From: Dictyostelium discoideum
Taxonomy: Eukaryota
Length of the DNA: 64,000 bases
Direction of reading: 5' to 3'
Assembly: GCA_000004695.1 (NCBI GenBank)
Contig: CM000155.2
Coordinates: forward strand, 2,400,001 to 2,464,000
Below the pieces are notes generated by a model, which searched no databases, was not told where the DNA came from, and was given only the letters and a program-made list of their open reading frames with translations. A program made the translations under genes and the position numbers. This document shows, one piece after another, positions 2,071 to 23,498 of this stretch (positions are counted from its first letter, which is position 1; each line of letters starts with the position of its first letter).

Positions 2071-3845
2071 ATGGAATACGATTTAACCAAACAAATATGT
2101 TCATTCTTAGATGCACATATGATGCTTCCATTAATTAACTATCTCAAAGTAAAGATCAATAAATAAAAATAAAAATTTAAAAAAAAAAACACATAATAAT
2201 AATAATAATAATAATCTTTATCTTTATTTTTTTTTATTTTTTATATTTAGGATACTCAACAATATCAAGAGAATGAAATTAATAAAGCAATGGCAGATAT
2301 TTTATCACAAACTGGTTGTTGTGATTATGCAATCAATGCTTATGAATCAATTGGTAGAGATACAGCACCACTCCAAGCCAAAAAACAAGAATTGGTTGGA
2401 GAACTTAATAAATTAAAGGAACAATGTTCATTTGTAACTCAATATATTGAATCAAAGAAACAACAAAAAGAACAACAAAAAGAATTAAAAGAACAACAAA
2501 AAGAACAACAAAAAGAAAAAGATACAGATAAAACTACACCAACTACTACAGATGAAACAACTACCACCACCACTACAGCACCAACCACCACCACTACTAC
2601 AACAACAACAACTATTACACCAATTACAGTTATTCCATTTTCACAATTATTAGAGAAAATTACACCAGAAATTTTAGATAGTATATATAGATTTTCAAAA
2701 TTATTATTTGAGATTGGACAATATGGATCAGCAAGAGAACATTTAGAGATTTTCCTTCAATTATCACCAACCCATCAAAATAAAGACAAGAGATTATCAG
2801 CATTATGGGGTATCCTCGAATCAGATATCCTCTCATTGAATTGGGGTCAAGCAGTTGGTGACATTTCACCATTACAAGATCAAATCGATTCCAATGGTAC
2901 ACCAGTTGAACAATTGGGTCAAAGAGCATGGTTAATTCATCGTGCACTCTTTGTCTACTTTTACAACCCAGAATCACGTTCATCATTGGTTGATTTACTC
3001 TTGGAGGATAAATATTTAAATGCCATTCAAACCACTTGTCCACACATTCTTCGTTATCTCGCCGTTGCCATCATTGTCAATAAAAAGAAACAACAATCAA
3101 ATGTTTTCCAACGTATTTTAAATGCACTCGTACGTGTCGTCGAACAAGAAGCTTACGTCTATCGTGATCCAATCACTCAATTCATCTCTAGTCTCTTTGT
3201 CAAATTCAACTTTGAAGATGCTCAAGCTCAACTCATTCTCTGTGAAAAAGTTTTGAAAAATGATTTCTTCCTCAATACCTGTGTCGATGAATTCATGGAA
3301 AATGCTCGTGTTTGTGTCTTTGAAACTTATTGTAATATTTTAGAATCAATTGATATTGAGTAAGTTTTATATTATTATTAAATATATATTTAAAATTACT
3401 ATTTATATATATATTAATATATATTTTTTTTTTTTTTTTAAAAAAAACCAATAGTATGTTATGCAAAAATTTAAGAATTGATCCAGAATCATCAGAGAAA
3501 TGGATCGTTGAAGCAATTAGAAATACTAGATTCTCTGCAAAGATTGATTCAGCAAATAATCAAATTAAAATGTTTACTCAACATAATTCCTATCGTCAAG
3601 TTATGGATAAGACAAAAGCATTATTTAATCGTGGTATCGAAATGGTCGTAGGTATCAATGAATCTAGAAGTCAACAAAATAGAAAAGGTGGTGATAACCG
3701 TAAGAATCAACGTGGTCAAAATAGAAATCAACAAAATCAACAAAACCAACAATCTAATGAATCAAATGAAACAACAACAACAACAACAACTGCAGCAGCA
3801 GCAACAACAACAACTACTACAACTGCAACTCCAACTTCCGCTTAA
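2071..3845 (+). CDS. eif3E: Eukaryotic translation initiation factor 3 subunit E (eIF3e/Int-6). Three exons: 2071..2148, 2251..3359, 3455..3845.
   Basis: Exon 1 MEYDLTKQICSFLDAHMMLPLINYLK matches the eIF3e N-terminus ([26 protein letters not shown]). The central exon carries the PCI-region motifs NAIQTTCPHILRYLAVAIIVNKK and DPITQFISSLFVKFNFEDAQ. The last exon LRIDPESSEKWIVEAIRNTRFSAKIDS aligns with human [27 protein letters not shown]. Introns are gtaaag..tttag and gtaagt..aatag and keep the frame. There is an Asn/Gln/Thr-rich C-terminal tail. Confidence 0.9.
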
Positions 3846-4734: not shown

Positions 4735-6126
<1,392 letters not shown>

Positions 6127-9868: not shown

Positions 9869-13081
<3,213 letters not shown>

Positions 13082-13793
13082 TAAATTATATTTTTAAATC
13101 TTGGGAATAAATATTTCCTTTTCTTTTTTTTAAATTAATCCTTTTTTAAATAAACGGATTAATTCCAACAAAATCTTCAAATGTATCGATTTAATTTTTT
13201 TTTTTTTTTTATTTTTTTTTTTTTTTTTAATTAATCCTTTTTTTATTTTTTTATTTTTTTTTTTTTTTTTTTTTTTTATTATTTTTTTTAATTTTTAATA
13301 TAATGGTTTTAAAATAAAAAAAATTAAATAAATTAAAAATTATAATTTTTTTTTTTTTTTTTTTTTTAATTAGATTCTTTTAAAAAAAAAATTAAAATAA
13401 TATTAAAAATAGGAATTAAATAAATTAAAATATTGATAAAATCTTGAATCTAAGGATAATGAAAAATAAAAAAAATAAAAAAAATTTATTGAATTTCCTA
13501 TTAAGTTAATTTCCTGTTTTAGTGTTTTTTTTAAAATAAAAAAAAAAAAATAATAAAAAATTAAAAATAAAATTTAAAATAAAAAAAATAAAATATAAAA
13601 ATAAAATAAAAAAAAAATTTTAATAAACTATAGTCTTCGAATGAACTAATAAAATAAAAAGTAAATATAATTATTTAAATATTTATTTTTATATACATAT
13701 ATTTAAATATTAATAAAAAAAATTTTTATTTGGGAAAAAGAAAAAAAAAAAAAAAAAAAATTGGAAAAACGATTTAAAGAAAAAAAATAAAAA

Positions 13794-14951
13794 ATGGGAA
13801 TTGAACAAGAAACTAAAGATGATTTTATTTCAATGTCACATGAAGGTGAAAGATTGAGTAAAGAAGCCAAAATTGAAGCAGATAGATTGAGTAAAGAAGC
13901 CAAAATTGAAGCAGATAGATTAAGACAAAATGTCAAATTAGAAGCTCAAGAAATAAAAAAAGATATTGAAAATCAAGCTCATAGTTCATGGGATACAGTT
14001 AAAGATGGTGCTAAATCAGTTCAAGACTATATCGTTAGTGGATTTGAAACTGTTAAACATTCAATTACAACCGATCCAGATGAATTGGCAATGGAACATT
14101 TGAAGGATAATATCAATGAAAAGATTGAAAATGTAGATAAAGAAGGTTCATCCATCCTTGGTGAAATTACCGATTTCTTTAAGGGAACCGCCGAAGAAGT
14201 CAAAATAGAAACAGATAAAATTGGTATGGGTGCATTCAATGATAGTGATCCATTTGTTGGTGATGTCCATAAAACATTCAATAAGACCACTGATAACTTA
14301 AAGGATGAAGCATCTAAACTCTCCAAAGATGCCAAATACCATTCAAATAGACTCTATGATGAATCTGGTAAAATCTACAAAGATACAAAGAATGAATCTG
14401 GTAAACTCTACAATGAAGTAAAGAAAGAATCTGGTAAACTCTTTAATGAAGCCAAGAAGGAAACCAATAAACTCTACAAAGATACCAAGAATGAAGGATC
14501 CAAATTGGCAACCGATTTAAAGAAGGATGTTGAGCAATTTGCTGATGAATCTAAAAAGATTGCTGCCGATATTAAAAACATTGCCAATGATACTTATCAA
14601 GGTATAACCAATGATGCATCAAAGAAAGCAAATGAACTTAAAAAGAAAGCAGGTGAAACTCTTGATGAATCTGCTGGTGCCATCGAACATCAACTTGATC
14701 TCTTCAAGAGAGATTTCAAATATCTTAACCAAAGAAGTGGACTTATCTATAGTGGTTTTGGTTTGGTTGGTGGTTATGGTGCTTCAAAATTCTTGGTTCC
14801 TAATGCTTCTCCAATCACTAAATTAACTTTAATGGCCGGTTTTGCCTCATTGGGTGCTTACTATGGTCTCCATCAACCATTCAATAGAACCATTGATAAT
14901 TCTCTCAATAGATTAAATAATAAAAAAGAAGAAATCAAAAAGAAATGGTAA
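13794..14951 (+). CDS. 11-mer amphipathic-repeat protein (LEA-group-3 / perilipin / apolipoprotein-like) with a C-terminal hydrophobic hairpin.
   Basis: 385-aa ORF. It has an exact 33-bp tandem duplication encoding RLSKEAKIEAD x2, then many degenerate 11-residue repeats (KDTKNESGKLY / NEVKKESGKLF / NEAKKETNKLY / KDTKNEGSKLA). The hydrophobic Gly/Pro-containing segment GLIYSGFGLVGGYGASKFLVPNASPITKLTLMAGFASLGAYYGLHQP is followed by a basic tail. Confidence 0.7.
   Translation: MGIEQETKDDFISMSHEGERLSKEAKIEADRLSKEAKIEADRLRQNVKLEAQEIKKDIENQAHSSWDTVKDGAKSVQDYIVSGFETVKHSITTDPDELAMEHLKDNINEKIENVDKEGSSILGEITDFFKGTAEEVKIETDKIGMGAFNDSDPFVGDVHKTFNKTTDNLKDEASKLSKDAKYHSNRLYDESGKIYKDTKNESGKLYNEVKKESGKLFNEAKKETNKLYKDTKNEGSKLATDLKKDVEQFADESKKIAADIKNIANDTYQGITNDASKKANELKKKAGETLDESAGAIEHQLDLFKRDFKYLNQRSGLIYSGFGLVGGYGASKFLVPNASPITKLTLMAGFASLGAYYGLHQPFNRTIDNSLNRLNNKKEEIKKKW
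13851..13916 (+). repeat. Perfect 33-bp tandem duplication inside the CDS, encoding RLSKEAKIEAD x2.
   Basis: agattgagtaaagaagccaaaattgaagcagat occurs twice in a row. A third copy begins agattaagacaa. Confidence 0.9.
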
Positions 14952-15199: not shown

Positions 15200-15583
15200 A
15201 TGAGTAATTTGCCTCCAATTGTAGATAATGAAAAAGAAGGTAGATTTGAAATGAAGTTTGATAATGGGGAAATTGCCCATTTAGATTATATCATTCACAA
15301 AGGAGGGGAGTATGATTTAACACATACATTTGTTCCAAATAGCCAAAGAGGAAAAAACATTGCATCTCTTTTATCAACTGCTGCTATGAACAAAGTTAGA
15401 GACAATCAAAAAAAGGTTGTCTTATCTTGTTCAGTATGTATTTAAATTTTTTTTAAAAATAAAAAAAATATTGGAAATCCAAAAAATATAACTCTAATAG
15501 TAAAAAAAAAGTATATCTCAGATACATGGTTACCAAAAAATCCAGATTATATCAAATATGTTATTAGATTAATTAAAAAATAA
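15200..15583 (+). CDS. NATD1-like protein (GNAT-fold, about 102 aa). Two exons: 15200..15433, 15511..15583.
   Basis: Exon 1 ...GRFEMKFDNGEIAHLDYIIHKGGEYDLTHTFVPNSQRGKNIASLLSTAAMNKVRDNQKKVVLSCS resembles human NATD1 ([49 protein letters not shown]). With the intron gtatgt..aaaaag the second exon reads YISDTWLPKNPDYIKYVIRLIKK*, matching the NATD1 tail [20 protein letters not shown]. The unspliced reading ends VCI*. Confidence 0.65.
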
Positions 15584-15987: not shown

Positions 15988-16846
15988 CTAAAGGATTAAA
16001 CAATCACCACCTTTAAACTTTTTAAGGATACCACCTTTTTTATCTTTCTTTGATCTGCCTGGCTCTTTGAGTGATTTTTTGATTTCTCTAACCACTTCAA
16101 AGAAACATTCATCCACATTCAATCTTTTCTTGGCAGAGGTCTCCAAGAATGGAACAGAGAAAGATTTAGCCAATTCACTTCCTTCACCTTCAGTAACTTC
16201 ACGAAGGTTTTCTAAATCACATTTGTTACCGACTAATACAATTGGAACTTTATCATTATCTTTTACTCTAATGATTTGTTCTCTAACAACATTAATTTCT
16301 TCAAAAGAAGTTCTGGATGTTACATCATAAACACATAAGAAACCTTGACCTGTACGCATATATTGGTCTCTATATTATTTAATATTTTAAAAATATTAAT
16401 ATTTTTTTTTTTTGATCTTTTTTTTTGATTTTTATAAAAAAAAAAAACCACCAATCAAAATATATCGAGAATGAAGATAATTTGATTTGCTAAATAATTT
16501 ACTAAATTGAATAAAATCAACATACCTCATAGCACTGTAATCATCTTGACCTGCAGTATCTAAAATATCTAATAAACAAGTATCTTCATCGACTTGACAT
16601 TGTCTACGATAACTGTCCTCTGTTTTAAAATATATATGTTTTTTAAAAAAAAAGAGAAAAAAAAGAGAAAAAAAAAAATATATTAATAAAAATTCTTTAT
16701 GATTTGTGATCAAATGATTAATACAAACCTATTGTTGGATCGTATTCCTCAATAAAGTGATTTTGGATAAATTGGATAGTAAGTGCACTCTTACTGTTAA
16801 AATAATTTAAATAATTATTGTGGTTAGTTATTTAGTTTTAAATTAA

Positions 16847-20534: not shown

Positions 20535-23498
20535 TTATCTTGGTTTTAGTTCTGATTGTGATTCTTGTGCTTTTGTAATTTGTTTGACTTTATATTTCAA
20601 AGTTTGAGTTGTTGGTAAACGATTTCTAAAGTAAATAACAGTACCAATAATAGCAGCACCACCAGCAATACCAACTACAATACCAACGATTGCACCAGTT
20701 GACAAACTTGATTTACCACCATTACCACCATTACCACCATTACCATTACCATTATTACCATCACCAACATTTCCACAACCATCACTTCTAATTAATAAAC
20801 CAAAGTTTTTACCAGAATTACTACTACTTGCGGAATAACATGATGGTAATGATTTCTCTTCTCCACTTGTTGGGTCATAGGTACCAAATTTAATTTCACC
20901 AAATCCAGTACCAGATAAATTTTCATAATTTATTAAAGTTTGATTAAATACTTGAGTTGAATTTGTTGAATTTGTAGTTGTTGGTGTTGGTGTTGGATTT
21001 AATAAACTATCAATGAAATATTGATTAATTCTAATTATTAATGTTGAATTATTAATTGTTGCATTTTTACCAATATTAATAAATGTTGAATTGGTTAAAC
21101 TATCTAAAGTGAAAATGAATTGACCATTTTCAGAATTTAATTCACCACTGACATTTAATGTACCAATGATAGCTTTATCACCAACAATACCATCGGATAC
21201 TGATAATGAGGAATTAATGGTACCAATGCCATATAAAGAACCATTTGATAAATTAATAGTTTCATCTGAGTGAACCAAAGCATCATCTAAAACTAATAAT
21301 CCACCATCTTGATTATAGGTCTTGATGGAAGTTTCTTTGGAGATTTTAACATTACCACCTTTATTAACAAATGGAACTAAAACTTGAATACCATTTTCAC
21401 CACCAAACATTTCAATAGTACCAGAGTTTATAAATGATTCGCCACCAGTATTATTAATTGGTAATACATTTGATTGTAGAATGAAATGAGCATCATTTCT
21501 TAAACTACCACCTTCATTAATGATAATATCACCCAATGTTGTAACTTCACCAAAACTATTAAATAATTGAGTATTTAAAAGTGATAATGATGAACCACTA
21601 TTTAATTTCAAAGATCCTTTCATAATTGTGATTGATGTATTATAGGTTGTCATATTTGAATTATTTTCAAGTACCATTTCACCTTCAACAATTTTCATTG
21701 ATCCAAATTCAATTAGAAAATTTGCTCCTTCATTATTTGTAAATGTACCATCAATTACATAATCACTAGTTGATGTTACTAATGTTCCATAGTTTCTAAA
21801 TTCACCACCAACTGTAACATTTGAATAGAAAATAAATAAACTACCAGTCTATTAAAATTTTTTTTTTTTAAAAAAAAAAAAGTTGTTAGTAGGTTAAACA
21901 ACCAGATGTTTTTTTTTTTTTTTTTTTATTAAAAAAAAACTTACGTTAATGAATGAACCAGTCACAGATAATAATGAATTATTAAAAATATTTGAACCAT
22001 TTAAATTTTGAGTAAAATCATAATATTGACCTTGAATATAAAATTCAGAATTTGCAACAACAAATGAGGATTTTCCAGAGAATGAAGTATAATTGGTAAC
22101 TTTAACAATTGAATTTACAACTTCAAATAATGATGAATCCATCATATTAAGTACTTGATCAATTGACATTATACTATTACTCATACTAACTCTGGAATTA
22201 TTGTAAAAAACAGATTCTTGAGCGATTGTCATTGTTGAGTCAAAAATTTCCAATGCAGAGTTATCAGATGTAAGTAAATGAGCATCTAAAATACCAACAC
22301 TTCCCATTTTAAATTGTAATAAACTATTATCACGAACAAAAAAGAATCTATTCCAATTGGATGGAATTTCTGGAATACTGATTAAAAAGGTGGAATTTTC
22401 AACATAAATCATTGAATTACCCAAAGTTGCAAATTGACTCATAATATTAATTTCAGAGTTTGAAATTAAACCACTACTTGCACCATCAAATAACAATGAT
22501 TTACCTGTTGTCAATTTGGAATTATAAAGACCCAATAAAGAATCACCATCAAATTCAACCTCATCATTAAAAGTTACATTTGAATTTTCTTTGATAAGTA
22601 TCAAACTTGTTAATGAACTTCCACTAACAATAATTTGATGTTTACAATCAAATACACTATTTAAAAAGACCAATTGACTATCAACCCATCTACTAATTGG
22701 AACTAATTTAACCAATCCAAAATCAACAATACTATTTTCAAAAGTTAATTTGGTTTTATTTCCAGTCAAGAGCATACTATTGTAAATTGATATTTTTGAA
22801 TCTTTAATATTTAAAAGTGATCCATCTTTTACTACAAATTTATTAAGAGTGTTATTGATAACAATAGTACTTTGAGAAATGACATCCCATTGAGAATAGA
22901 GATCAATAAATGCATTTTCAACCAACATTGTAGCATTTGACATGAGAAGTAGGGAGAGTGTATAGTCTAAATAAAATCCGGAAACCAAGGTATCTTGAAT
23001 AACCCAACCTACTCCACCATAAATACTAACACTTGCATTTGGAGCATAGAAATGTTTACCCAATGTTCTTAAAGTACAACCTGCGGCACAAATTAAAGTT
23101 TCAGCATCGATTCTGAAATCTGGATTTTCTAATGGATCGCCACTAATATTAAATATTACTTCTTGAGGGGCAAATTGGTCTTTGACTTGGAATAGTGCAG
23201 TTTGAATACCATATTTGGAATTAAAGTTTGTTGAATAATTAAAACCACCAACATAAATTTTAGATGCAATAGCTTTTTGATAGTGGTTGGTTACTATTTG
23301 ATTGGAAACTAATGTTAAGTATGTTTCATCATTTAATGTTGGAAGTGTTGTTTGGCTACTACTAATATAATCATACCAATTATTATTATCACTCCAATCT
23401 CCAACATTTACAGAAAAAAAAAGTTTAATATCACAACTAATAAAATTTAATAAATTTATTATTATAAATAAAAAAATTATTATATTATTATTATTCAT
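20535..23498 (-). CDS. Large secreted/type-I membrane protein of about 955 aa (signal peptide, Asn/Thr/Ser-rich repetitive ectodomain, single C-terminal TM, short basic tail). Two exons: 23498..21946, 21848..20535.
   Basis: The N-terminus MNNNNIIIFLFIIINLLNFISCD is a signal peptide. Exon 1 ends ...TGSFIN|gtaagt. Exon 2 starts at ttttaatag|ACTGGTAG and continues in frame into the downstream ORF (…GSMKIVEGEMVLENN…). There are many N-x-S/T sequons and repetitive beta-strand-like Ser/Asn/Thr segments. A Gly-rich stalk GNGNGGNGGNGG precedes the TM GAIVGIVVGIAGGAAIIGTVIYF and RNRLPTT... I see no homology to a named family. Confidence 0.65.

Follow-up and report, generated by a model that had tools for sequence, protein, structure and literature searches.

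In silico analyses of a 64,000-nucleotide (nt) stretch of the Dictyostelium discoideum AX4 genome (contig CM000155.2, positions 2,400,001 to 2,464,000 of the forward strand; hereafter the window) indicate that one of its genes, DDB_G0293060, may encode a membrane-tethered protein that coats a membrane surface. The predicted product combines a long N-terminal region of amphipathic helices, built on an 11-residue repeat, with a small and highly conserved C-terminal hairpin. In the interpretation favoured here, to which a probability of roughly 45% is given, the site is a mitochondrial membrane and the hairpin is a divergent anchor of the ApoO (Mic26/Mic27) type. The features discussed below are listed in Table 1, and all coordinates refer to the window unless a locus is named.

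The open reading frame (ORF) under study gives a product identical to XP_629298.1 / Q54CC1, the DDB_G0293060 protein of AX4, which is annotated only as "hypothetical protein"; no paper naming DDB_G0293060 or Q54CC1 was found in the literature searched. The same 385-amino-acid (aa) protein is recorded on two contigs, which disfavours a one-off assembly error. Two assemblies labelled D. discoideum (ACTFIR and ACTFIW) contain an orthologue, as do D. cf. discoideum, D. citrinum, D. dimigraforme and D. firmibasis. Four of the orthologous loci (ACTFIR, D. citrinum, D. dimigraforme and D. firmibasis) have in common, as neighbours, genes for a GNAT-type acetyltransferase and a Ras-family GTPase. The AX4 gene and its syntenic ACTFIR counterpart show 96.3% nucleotide identity, with 23 synonymous and 18 nonsynonymous codon differences, none of the latter falling within residues 263-372. 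The window as a whole is very AT-rich and carries poly-Asn tracts; by comparison of these loci, DDB_G0293060 is a real, selected and intron-less gene. A 357-aa ORF at 2290-3363 was suspected as an in-window paralog, its length being that of the paralog described below (P0005), and was discarded because its sequence is unrelated.

A preliminary description of this locus, made from the DNA letters alone, had proposed degenerate 11-residue amphipathic repeats, and spectral analysis bears this out. The hydrophobicity spectrum of DDB_G0293060 has one sharp peak, at 3.667 residues (11/3), where z is 26.8 over residues 1-315 and 27.7 over residues 165-310, values attained by 0/2000 shuffles in either case. 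No canonical heptad signal was found at period 3.5 (z -0.7), and in the homologs tested z did not exceed 1.2 when the whole amphipathic region was taken. In identity autocorrelation, peaks occur at lags 11, 22 and 33. The related Dictyostelium proteins have periods peaking at 3.63-3.68, with z at 3.667 of 22-26 (P0002, P0005) and 6.7 (P0004), while the two most distant family members behave in a similar way: z is 18 in P0013 (Synstelium polycarpum), and P0012 (Acytostelium subglobosum) peaks at 3.59-3.63 with z ca. 20 at 3.6, its sub-region 330-640 giving z 2.5 at 3.5 as compared to z 20 at 3.6. In the 11-residue register, apolar residues occupy positions c, g, j and partly k. Three blocks (residues 1-90, 100-175 and 177-300) each keep a constant repeat phase, with jumps at Pro/Gly breaks. 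The N-terminal ca. 310 residues make up three to four long alpha-helices, amphipathic and of exact 11/3 repeat.

The longest of these, the 158-residue helix 153-310, was projected on an 11/3 wheel. Among the 29 positions lying within +/-30 degrees of the moment none is charged, and half are small residues (Ala, Ser, Thr, Gly). On one flank of this stripe Glu/Asp alternates with Leu/Ile, and the other is rich in Tyr, Phe, Ala and Lys; the mean hydrophobicity <H> is -0.05 for a mean hydrophobic moment <muH> of 0.43. The full-length AlphaFold2 (AF2) model is all-helical, with breaks at residues 91-96, 131-132 and 150-152, and has a predicted local distance difference test score (pLDDT) of 42, a low value that fits a chain predicted to lack a fixed tertiary fold and to fold on binding.

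All Pfam and NCBIfam matches of DDB_G0293060 fall below threshold. The Apolipoprotein model (PF01442) gives 29.6 bits for a cut-off of 90 (52.5 in the best family member), ApoLp-III 21.6 for 36.3, YtxH (PF12732) 16.2 for 37.5 and Phasin 14.9 for 28.8, and ATP-synt_B and DivIVA are sub-threshold as well. Sub-threshold matches recur among 8 members of the family, with Apolipoprotein, Phasin and YtxH found in 8/8, ApoLp-III in 7/8 and DUF883 in 4/8 (best E 0.0056), all five being families of amphipathic helices that lie on lipid surfaces or are tethered to membranes. The helix would thus have the statistical character of lipid-surface-binding helices, which does not imply descent from those families. 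Perilipin, LEA_4, Synuclein and Oleosin did not match DDB_G0293060 even at E<=10 in Pfam; LEA_4 (PF02987) is neither among its 16 families at that level nor among the 25 commonest across the 8 members. Sequence searches of the PDB with the single protein and with both profiles returned nothing below E 0.01. The lipid-surface architecture put forward in the preliminary description therefore survives as a chemistry shared with apolipoprotein, group 3 late embryogenesis abundant (LEA3) and perilipin-type helices, with no family threshold reached, and membership is not supported for perilipin, LEA_4 and synuclein, nor for apolipoprotein at the score given above.

The same periodicity could be read as a hendecad coiled coil of the Scy, FilP or DivIVA kind, in which the N-terminal region would form a dimer or filament and the protein would act as a membrane-anchored tether or scaffold. 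A precomputed Pfam Scy match (PF28068) is recorded on all Dictyostelium orthologues, NCBIfam Scy (NF041483) matches with E 4.6e-11, DivIVA/Wag31 matches are also found, and a period of 3.6-3.67 is the pattern of an untwisted or right-handed coiled coil. The NCBIfam match, however, reaches only 41 bits for a cut-off of 1040, and the 51-residue super-repeat of Scy/FilP was not found, no peak occurring at lag 51 (0.127 identity vs 0.221 at lag 11). A stripe that is half Ala, Ser, Thr or Gly, in a helix with a mean hydrophobicity of ca. 0, would make a weak core for a stable coiled coil, and AF2 confidence is low. Moreover, apolipoprotein and phasin models match equally well, which points to periodicity and not descent; the precomputed Scy match probably reflects the common hendecad period in the same way. 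A coiled coil is accordingly regarded as an improbable description of this region.

The repeats have been gained recently and in exact units. The exact 33-bp tandem duplication first reported in the preliminary description was confirmed by direct string comparison, units 13851-13883 and 13884-13916 matching at 33/33 positions (Tandem Repeats Finder, TRF: 2.2 copies, 100% match), as compared to the 10.4 +/- 3.0 nt shared by random in-frame 33-mers of the same coding sequence (CDS). RLSKEAKIEAD is thereby encoded at residues 20-30 and again at residues 31-41. Precisely these 33 nt are missing in the 374-aa syntenic orthologues of ACTFIR, ACTFIW and D. cf. discoideum, and comparison of these alleles indicates that the duplication is derived and far more recent than the 3.7% divergence between AX4 and the ACTFIR-type lineage. 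A second array, made of xxxK(N/K)ESGKLY units that share 20-26/33 nt pairwise, was called by TRF at 14359-14495 (4.2 copies, 79% match). One of its 33-nt units, around 14385-14417 (the placement is ambiguous), is confined to the D. discoideum clade, being missing in D. citrinum, D. dimigraforme, D. firmibasis and the paralog. Taken together, the duplication and this clade-specific unit indicate, from the alignments, at least two independent exact in-frame 33-nt gains on the lineage to AX4, in line with the recent expansion suggested earlier. All indels seen in the repeat arrays of DDB_G0293060 are exact 33-nt units.

The C-terminal module is the most conserved part of the protein, with thirteen residues invariant in all members (N312, G316, G323, G327, P340, G349, A351, L353, G354, Y357, G358, L359 and P362). 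Its segment 316-359 comprises 44 aa, with 20% Gly and 2 Pro, and is followed by the basic tail. When folded alone by AF2, the module forms a helix-turn-helix, at a pLDDT of 71 that rises to 80-84 in the core, with a turn at V335-S339 and a third, basic helix after it. Each arm carries a small-residue stripe, the arrangement classically seen where helices pack tightly against each other in membranes. The hydrophobicity of the hairpin is marginal, the best 19-mer having a Kyte-Doolittle (KD) mean of 1.05 and a Hessa sum of +5.3 kcal/mol, as compared to 2.45 and -0.3 for a bona fide transmembrane (TM) helix in another ORF of the window (20535-21698) that served as internal control. Of the C-terminal segment as initially described, the Pro-broken two-helix form and the basic tail (ca. 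+4) therefore hold, and its hydrophobicity has to be qualified as marginal only; a strongly hydrophobic, oleosin-like monotopic hairpin was not recovered. Foldseek comparison of the hairpin model with the PDB gave only generic membrane hairpins, all with E > 1, and the isolated C-terminus matched no family in Pfam.

The N-termini of the family members are acidic, with no signal peptide or presequence seen. N-myristoylation of the invariant Gly2 was considered and set aside: position 6 is Glu or Asp, an unfavourable context for this modification.

A module of this composition might alternatively be a glycine zipper, mediating oligomerisation or aggregation of a soluble hydrophilin/LEA-like protein and serving as no anchor at all. 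In 19-residue windows its arms have Hessa sums of +5 to +6 kcal/mol, which predict no spontaneous insertion by the translocon, and self-association could rest on its conserved Gly and Tyr residues. Two helices of ca. 17 residues, a conserved Pro turn and a basic tail are nevertheless the typical layout of a membrane hairpin, interfacial partitioning is favourable (-3.9 to -4.5 on the Wimley-White interface scale), and the membrane arms of ApoO proteins are equally marginal (see below). A soluble glycine-zipper protein is considered very improbable.

The module was used as a HMMER profile in an exhaustive search of 1.84 billion representative proteins at E<=0.001, which retrieved three proteins only: P0005 (the Dictyostelium cluster representative), P0012, a partial 887-aa protein of A. 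subglobosum (E 1.7e-8), and P0013, a 157-aa protein of S. polycarpum (E 4.9e-5). Further searches of indexed proteins with a C-terminal profile and with P0013 gave no new members. In both P0012 and P0013 the module sits behind Lys/Ala/Glu-rich repeats of 3.6-3.67 periodicity. Since both distant members carry it behind the same type of helix, module and helix appear from these sequences to be a conserved couple whose helical part varies from ca. 95 to ca. 800 residues. On present data, the hairpin family seems restricted to dictyostelids (Dictyostelium, Acytostelium and Synstelium).

A paralog of 357 aa, with 54% identity and the same architecture (P0005/P0011), occurs in the ACTFIR and ACTFIW assemblies; in ACTFIR (GCA_054859385.1, contig JBTAPF010000019.1) it lies at 5001-6074 of locus L003, next to importin-like and amidohydrolase genes. 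It was considered as a contaminant orthologue, but is treated as a paralog because it sits in the same assembly on a different multi-Mb contig and among other neighbours. Its 90% cluster includes no AX4 protein; either the paralog has been lost or is unannotated in AX4, or ACTFIR and ACTFIW (ca. 96% identical in DDB_G0293060) represent a distinct lineage. The same cluster contains P0008 (47 aa, labelled 'YfcA'), an unrelated protein and a clustering artefact. Finally, a prokaryote-like metagenome protein of the Joint Genome Institute (P0006, 370 aa) has a run of at least 8 tandem EAGKLGxEVSK 11-mers and, behind it, a single Gly-rich TM helix of YtxH type. Rejected as a homologue, it is an analogue, an independent example of a design in which LEA-like 11-mers are joined to a membrane anchor.

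Within this family, residues 771-860 of P0012, which cover the end of the helical region and the hairpin, match ApoO (PF09769) with E 0.016 and 15.6 bits. Further comparisons relied on human APOO and APOOL and yeast Mic27 and Mic26, which score 127, 109, 36.5 and 116.6 bits, respectively, with PF09769 (cut-off 31.4). By hhalign, a 6-sequence module profile aligned with APOO+APOOL over the expected columns with P 0.0027 and a probability of 11%; when seven 135-aa dictyostelid C-termini were set against all four proteins, the probability rose to 44% (P 2.3e-4, score 30.7, 68 columns), the signal thus increasing with deeper profiles. Column-shuffled ApoO profiles score 11.2 +/- 2.5 with a maximum of 24.3, 0/120 reaching 30.7, and the reversed profile scores 16.7. 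Real Gly-rich hairpin or TM decoys range from 8.6 to 19.3 (Mic10 9.9, HIGD1A 14.5, ATP synthase c 19.3), with ElaB at 14.4 (range 9.1-14.4), the TM segment of P0006 at 15.4 and the in-window TM helix at 13.1. Arm hydrophobicity is equally marginal on both sides (+1.9 to +7.5 in ApoO, +3.4 to +6.1 in the dictyostelid family). Motifs aligned around arm 1 comprise Y-x-x-L-(x)-N before it, x-G-phi-I at its start and (G/A)-S-K at its end; others are S-x-I-x-K-L, G-(L/F)-A-x-L-G and, after arm 2, aromatics followed by P/Q. The string LGLATLG is identical between P0013 of Synstelium and human APOOL. The yeast ApoO sequences presumably begin with acidic N-termini, as do those of the dictyostelid family.

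Several points weigh against this assignment and against the membrane-coat reading as a whole. The match of P0012 does not reach the ApoO cut-off of 31.4 bits and is the only one among 8 members, DDB_G0293060 itself giving no PF09769 match at E<=10. The four ApoO sequences are not database copies and were validated by their Pfam scores alone. The hhalign probability remains below 50%, beneath every accepted threshold, and the exhaustive search with the hairpin profile retrieved no ApoO protein. The Hessa cost of the arms makes membrane insertion something that we infer. With respect to the N-terminal region, the shallow 6-sequence alignment may by itself explain the low pLDDT, and a hendecad coiled coil also fits the 11/3 periodicity. 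With these points included, the data are suggestive of true homology between hairpin and ApoO domain, with a chance of about one in three to one in two on the sequences compared. That the dictyostelid proteins are the first Mic26/Mic27-type subunits of MICOS, the mitochondrial system for contact sites and cristae organization, recognised outside opisthokonts is a tentative extension, held well below even odds.

A second location to be weighed, which the preliminary description had suggested, is the lipid droplet, with DDB_G0293060 as a lipid-droplet or endoplasmic reticulum-derived coat, or as a desiccation protein, held by a monotopic anchor like that of oleosin or of class I lipid-droplet proteins while its 11-mers, in the manner of perilipin or LEA3, coat the phospholipid monolayer or protect membranes in drying spores or cysts. 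The 11/3 chemistry, with its weakly hydrophobic, small-residue face, resembles that of perilipin-type and LEA3 helices, and the sub-threshold Apolipoprotein, ApoLp-III and Phasin matches, the Pro-containing turn in the middle of the hairpin and the oppositely charged flanks all agree with it; in group 3 LEA 11-mers, stripes of opposite charge flank the apolar stripe. Against this stand the failure of Perilipin, LEA_4, Oleosin and Synuclein to match and the hairpin itself. Oleosin has an uninterrupted hydrophobic hairpin of ca. 70 residues with a central proline knot (PX5SPX3P), whereas the arms of DDB_G0293060 are of ca. 17 residues with KD ca. 1.0, are bordered by K332 and K343, and share only an invariant (S/A)-P in the turn. 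The top match of the hairpin is, furthermore, ApoO and no lipid-droplet protein. DDB_G0293060 was not found in the supplement of a Dictyostelium lipid-droplet proteome, which is weak evidence since only 38,190 characters of its text were covered. A lipid-droplet or desiccation role is seen as unlikely.

The marginal hydrophobicity, the Gly-rich arms and the resemblance to ApoO make a mitochondrial membrane seem the likelier address, ahead of the lipid droplet. DDB_G0293060 was not found in a mitochondrial phosphoproteome supplement, and the searches of literature and supplements turned up no proteomic record placing it in mitochondria; it was also not found in a hyperosmotic-shock array supplement, whose old array identifiers could not be mapped to the gene.

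In the proposed mechanism of this mitochondrial coat, the hairpin would insert post-translationally into the organelle membrane, as suggested by the lack of a signal peptide or presequence, and would tether the protein there. The glycine stripes would pack both arms together or drive oligomerisation. The N-terminal chain would be poorly structured in solution and would fold flat on the tethering membrane, coating or shaping its surface. Because the 11/3 repeat is exact, the apolar stripe would run straight along the helix, and because 11 residues make exactly three turns, gain or loss of a 33-nt unit would lengthen or shorten the helix without dephasing the stripe. Units that stay in phase would explain why all array indels are exact 33-nt units, why slippage products survive and why helical length can range from ca. 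95 to ca. 800 residues.

Table 1. Features of DDB_G0293060 and its promoter in the window
Feature	Position	Strand	Basis or remark
Conserved promoter block TTGAATTTCCTATTAAGTTAATTTCCTGTTTTAGTG, 36 bp; holds AATTTCCT twice as direct repeat (-302 and -286 relative to the ATG)	13489..13524	+	
Second conserved promoter block ATAGT(C)TTC(G/A)AATGAACTAAT, ca. -160 from the ATG	13630..13650	+	4/5 species
Complete intron-less CDS of DDB_G0293060 (385 aa + stop)	13794..14951	+	ORF list; exact match to XP_629298.1 / Q54CC1; syntenic orthologues in 5 Dictyostelium genomes
Amphipathic helix segment 1, residues 3-90; phase ca. 170 degrees; ends at the TTDPDE break	13800..14063	+	Phase scan; AF2 helix 3-90
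N-terminal array, four 11-residue units (residues 20-63)	13851..13982	+	33/33, 22/33 and 18/33 nt shared with first unit
Exact 33-bp tandem duplication, 2 x RLSKEAKIEAD, residues 20-41; derived, without counterpart in nearest relatives	13851..13916	+	
Amphipathic helix segments 2 and 3, residues 97-150; phase ca. 50 degrees; well conserved, non-repetitive	14082..14243	+	Phase scan; AF2
Long amphipathic helix, residues 153-310; straight apolar stripe, acidic flank vs basic/aromatic flank	14250..14723	+	
Second 33-bp repeat array, xxxK(N/K)ESGKLY units, residues 185-239	14346..14510	+	TRF; unit identities; alignment gaps
Conserved C-terminal module, residues 307-362	14712..14879	+	Alignments; no nonsynonymous AX4/ACTFIR differences in 263-372
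Putative hairpin arm 1, residues 316-332; small-residue stripe G316/S320/G323/G327/A330	14739..14789	+	
Turn, residues 333-342 (KFLVPNASPI), invariant (S/A)-P	14790..14819	+	AF2 helix break 335-339; alignment
Putative hairpin arm 2, residues 343-359; stripe M347/A351/G354/G358; YYGL motif	14820..14870	+	
Basic C-terminal helix/tail, residues 360-385, net charge ca. +4	14871..14948	+	Sequence; AF2 helix 362-384

Upstream of the gene, two conserved blocks were detected (Table 1). The first is near-invariant in 5 Dictyostelium species, within an intergenic region of ca. 9% GC that is otherwise unalignable, and its two AATTTCCT copies are 16 bp apart, ca. 300 bp upstream of the ATG. The block also occurs in loci L004 (4700-4731) and L005 (2165-2196) and in the promoters in L001 and L006, and its core ATTTCCTGTTTTAGTG is present at -296 in the promoter of the paralog (L003). 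No regulon can be drawn from it because AATTTCCT is not enriched in the window, where it was found 9 times for 10.5 expected.

Among neighbouring genes, the one immediately downstream (15200-15445, plus strand, and beyond) encodes a small GNAT-like protein (Acetyltransf_CG, PF14542, in orthologous loci); it is apparently split by an intron, and in D. dimigraforme (L006) its orientation is the reverse of that in the other species. It is followed at 15988-16713, on the minus strand, by a multi-exon gene for a Ras-family GTPase with the CAAX-type end CLIL, whose orthologous product has 197 aa (Pfam Ras). On the other side, a long ORF at 10475-13081 (plus strand) has multiple poly-Asn/poly-Gln tracts of up to ca. 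40 Asn, as is typical of Dictyostelium low-complexity proteins; the GTG start listed for it is probably not the real one. Finally, the ORF at 20535-21698 (minus strand), which supplied the TM control, encodes a 387-aa Ser/Thr/Asn-rich product with a (GN)n tract, a strongly hydrophobic TM helix and a short basic tail.

Whatever its location, DDB_G0293060 offers a compact natural example of an 11/3 helix evolving by exact three-turn (33-nt) units with its stripe kept in phase, and its hairpin, on sequence evidence, would be a previously undescribed and dictyostelid-restricted domain, possibly related to ApoO. Surveys have placed Mic26 and Mic27/28 in opisthokonts only (PMC7050145), a distribution that would need revision for Mic26/Mic27 if the ApoO link is true. 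The origin of the subunit would then go back at least to the common ancestor of Amoebozoa and Opisthokonta, and its apolipoprotein-like part would have become, in dictyostelids, a giant and fast-evolving 11-mer helix (95 to ca. 800 residues), which forms a coat on the crista-junction membrane and is lengthened or shortened by 33-nt slippage that keeps the phase. Dictyostelium, a tractable model of mitochondrial disease, would thereby gain a candidate cristae-organising subunit. If the link is false, the protein would still be a candidate for protecting or coating membranes in an organism whose spores resist desiccation.

When compared to known systems, DDB_G0293060 shares with group 3 LEA proteins the tandem 11-residue amphipathic units, a Lys/Glu/Asp/Ala-rich composition and a predicted disorder that gives way to folding at surfaces or upon drying. 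Its consensus xxxK(N/K)ESGKLY is, however, not of the TAQAAKEKAGE type of LEA_4, and it has a conserved membrane hairpin that typical LEA3 proteins lack. Amphipathic helices of 11/3 periodicity are also found in apolipoproteins, apolipophorin III and the 11-mer region of perilipins; in the latter, small residues abound on an apolar face of weak hydrophobicity (PMC5889406, PMC8064757), and they do so in DDB_G0293060 as well. Unlike these proteins, it has no signal peptide, Pro-punctuated 22-mers, PAT domain or four-helix bundle. It would moreover be tethered permanently by its hairpin, in contrast to exchangeable apolipoproteins. With Perilipin (PF03036) it has only the 11-mer periodicity in common, its C-terminus being a two-helix hairpin.

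Scy/FilP proteins of Streptomyces have a similar periodicity of ca. 3.64-3.67 residues, yet DDB_G0293060 differs from them in being eukaryotic, in its weak core and in its membrane hairpin. In the bacterial membrane-tethered stress proteins YtxH and ElaB/DUF883, and in phasins, a LEA-like amphipathic helix is coupled to a membrane segment rich in Gly; YtxH and ElaB have a single TM helix where DDB_G0293060 has a hairpin, and the relation is one of analogy and not of membership. The closest parallel in overall plan may be ApoO, whose founding member APOO takes its name from its apolipoprotein A1/A4/E-like region. In both, a helical region is followed by a two-helix hairpin rich in Gly and small residues and of marginal hydrophobicity, while the amphipathic part of DDB_G0293060 is far longer, variable in length and openly repetitive, being built of 11-mers.

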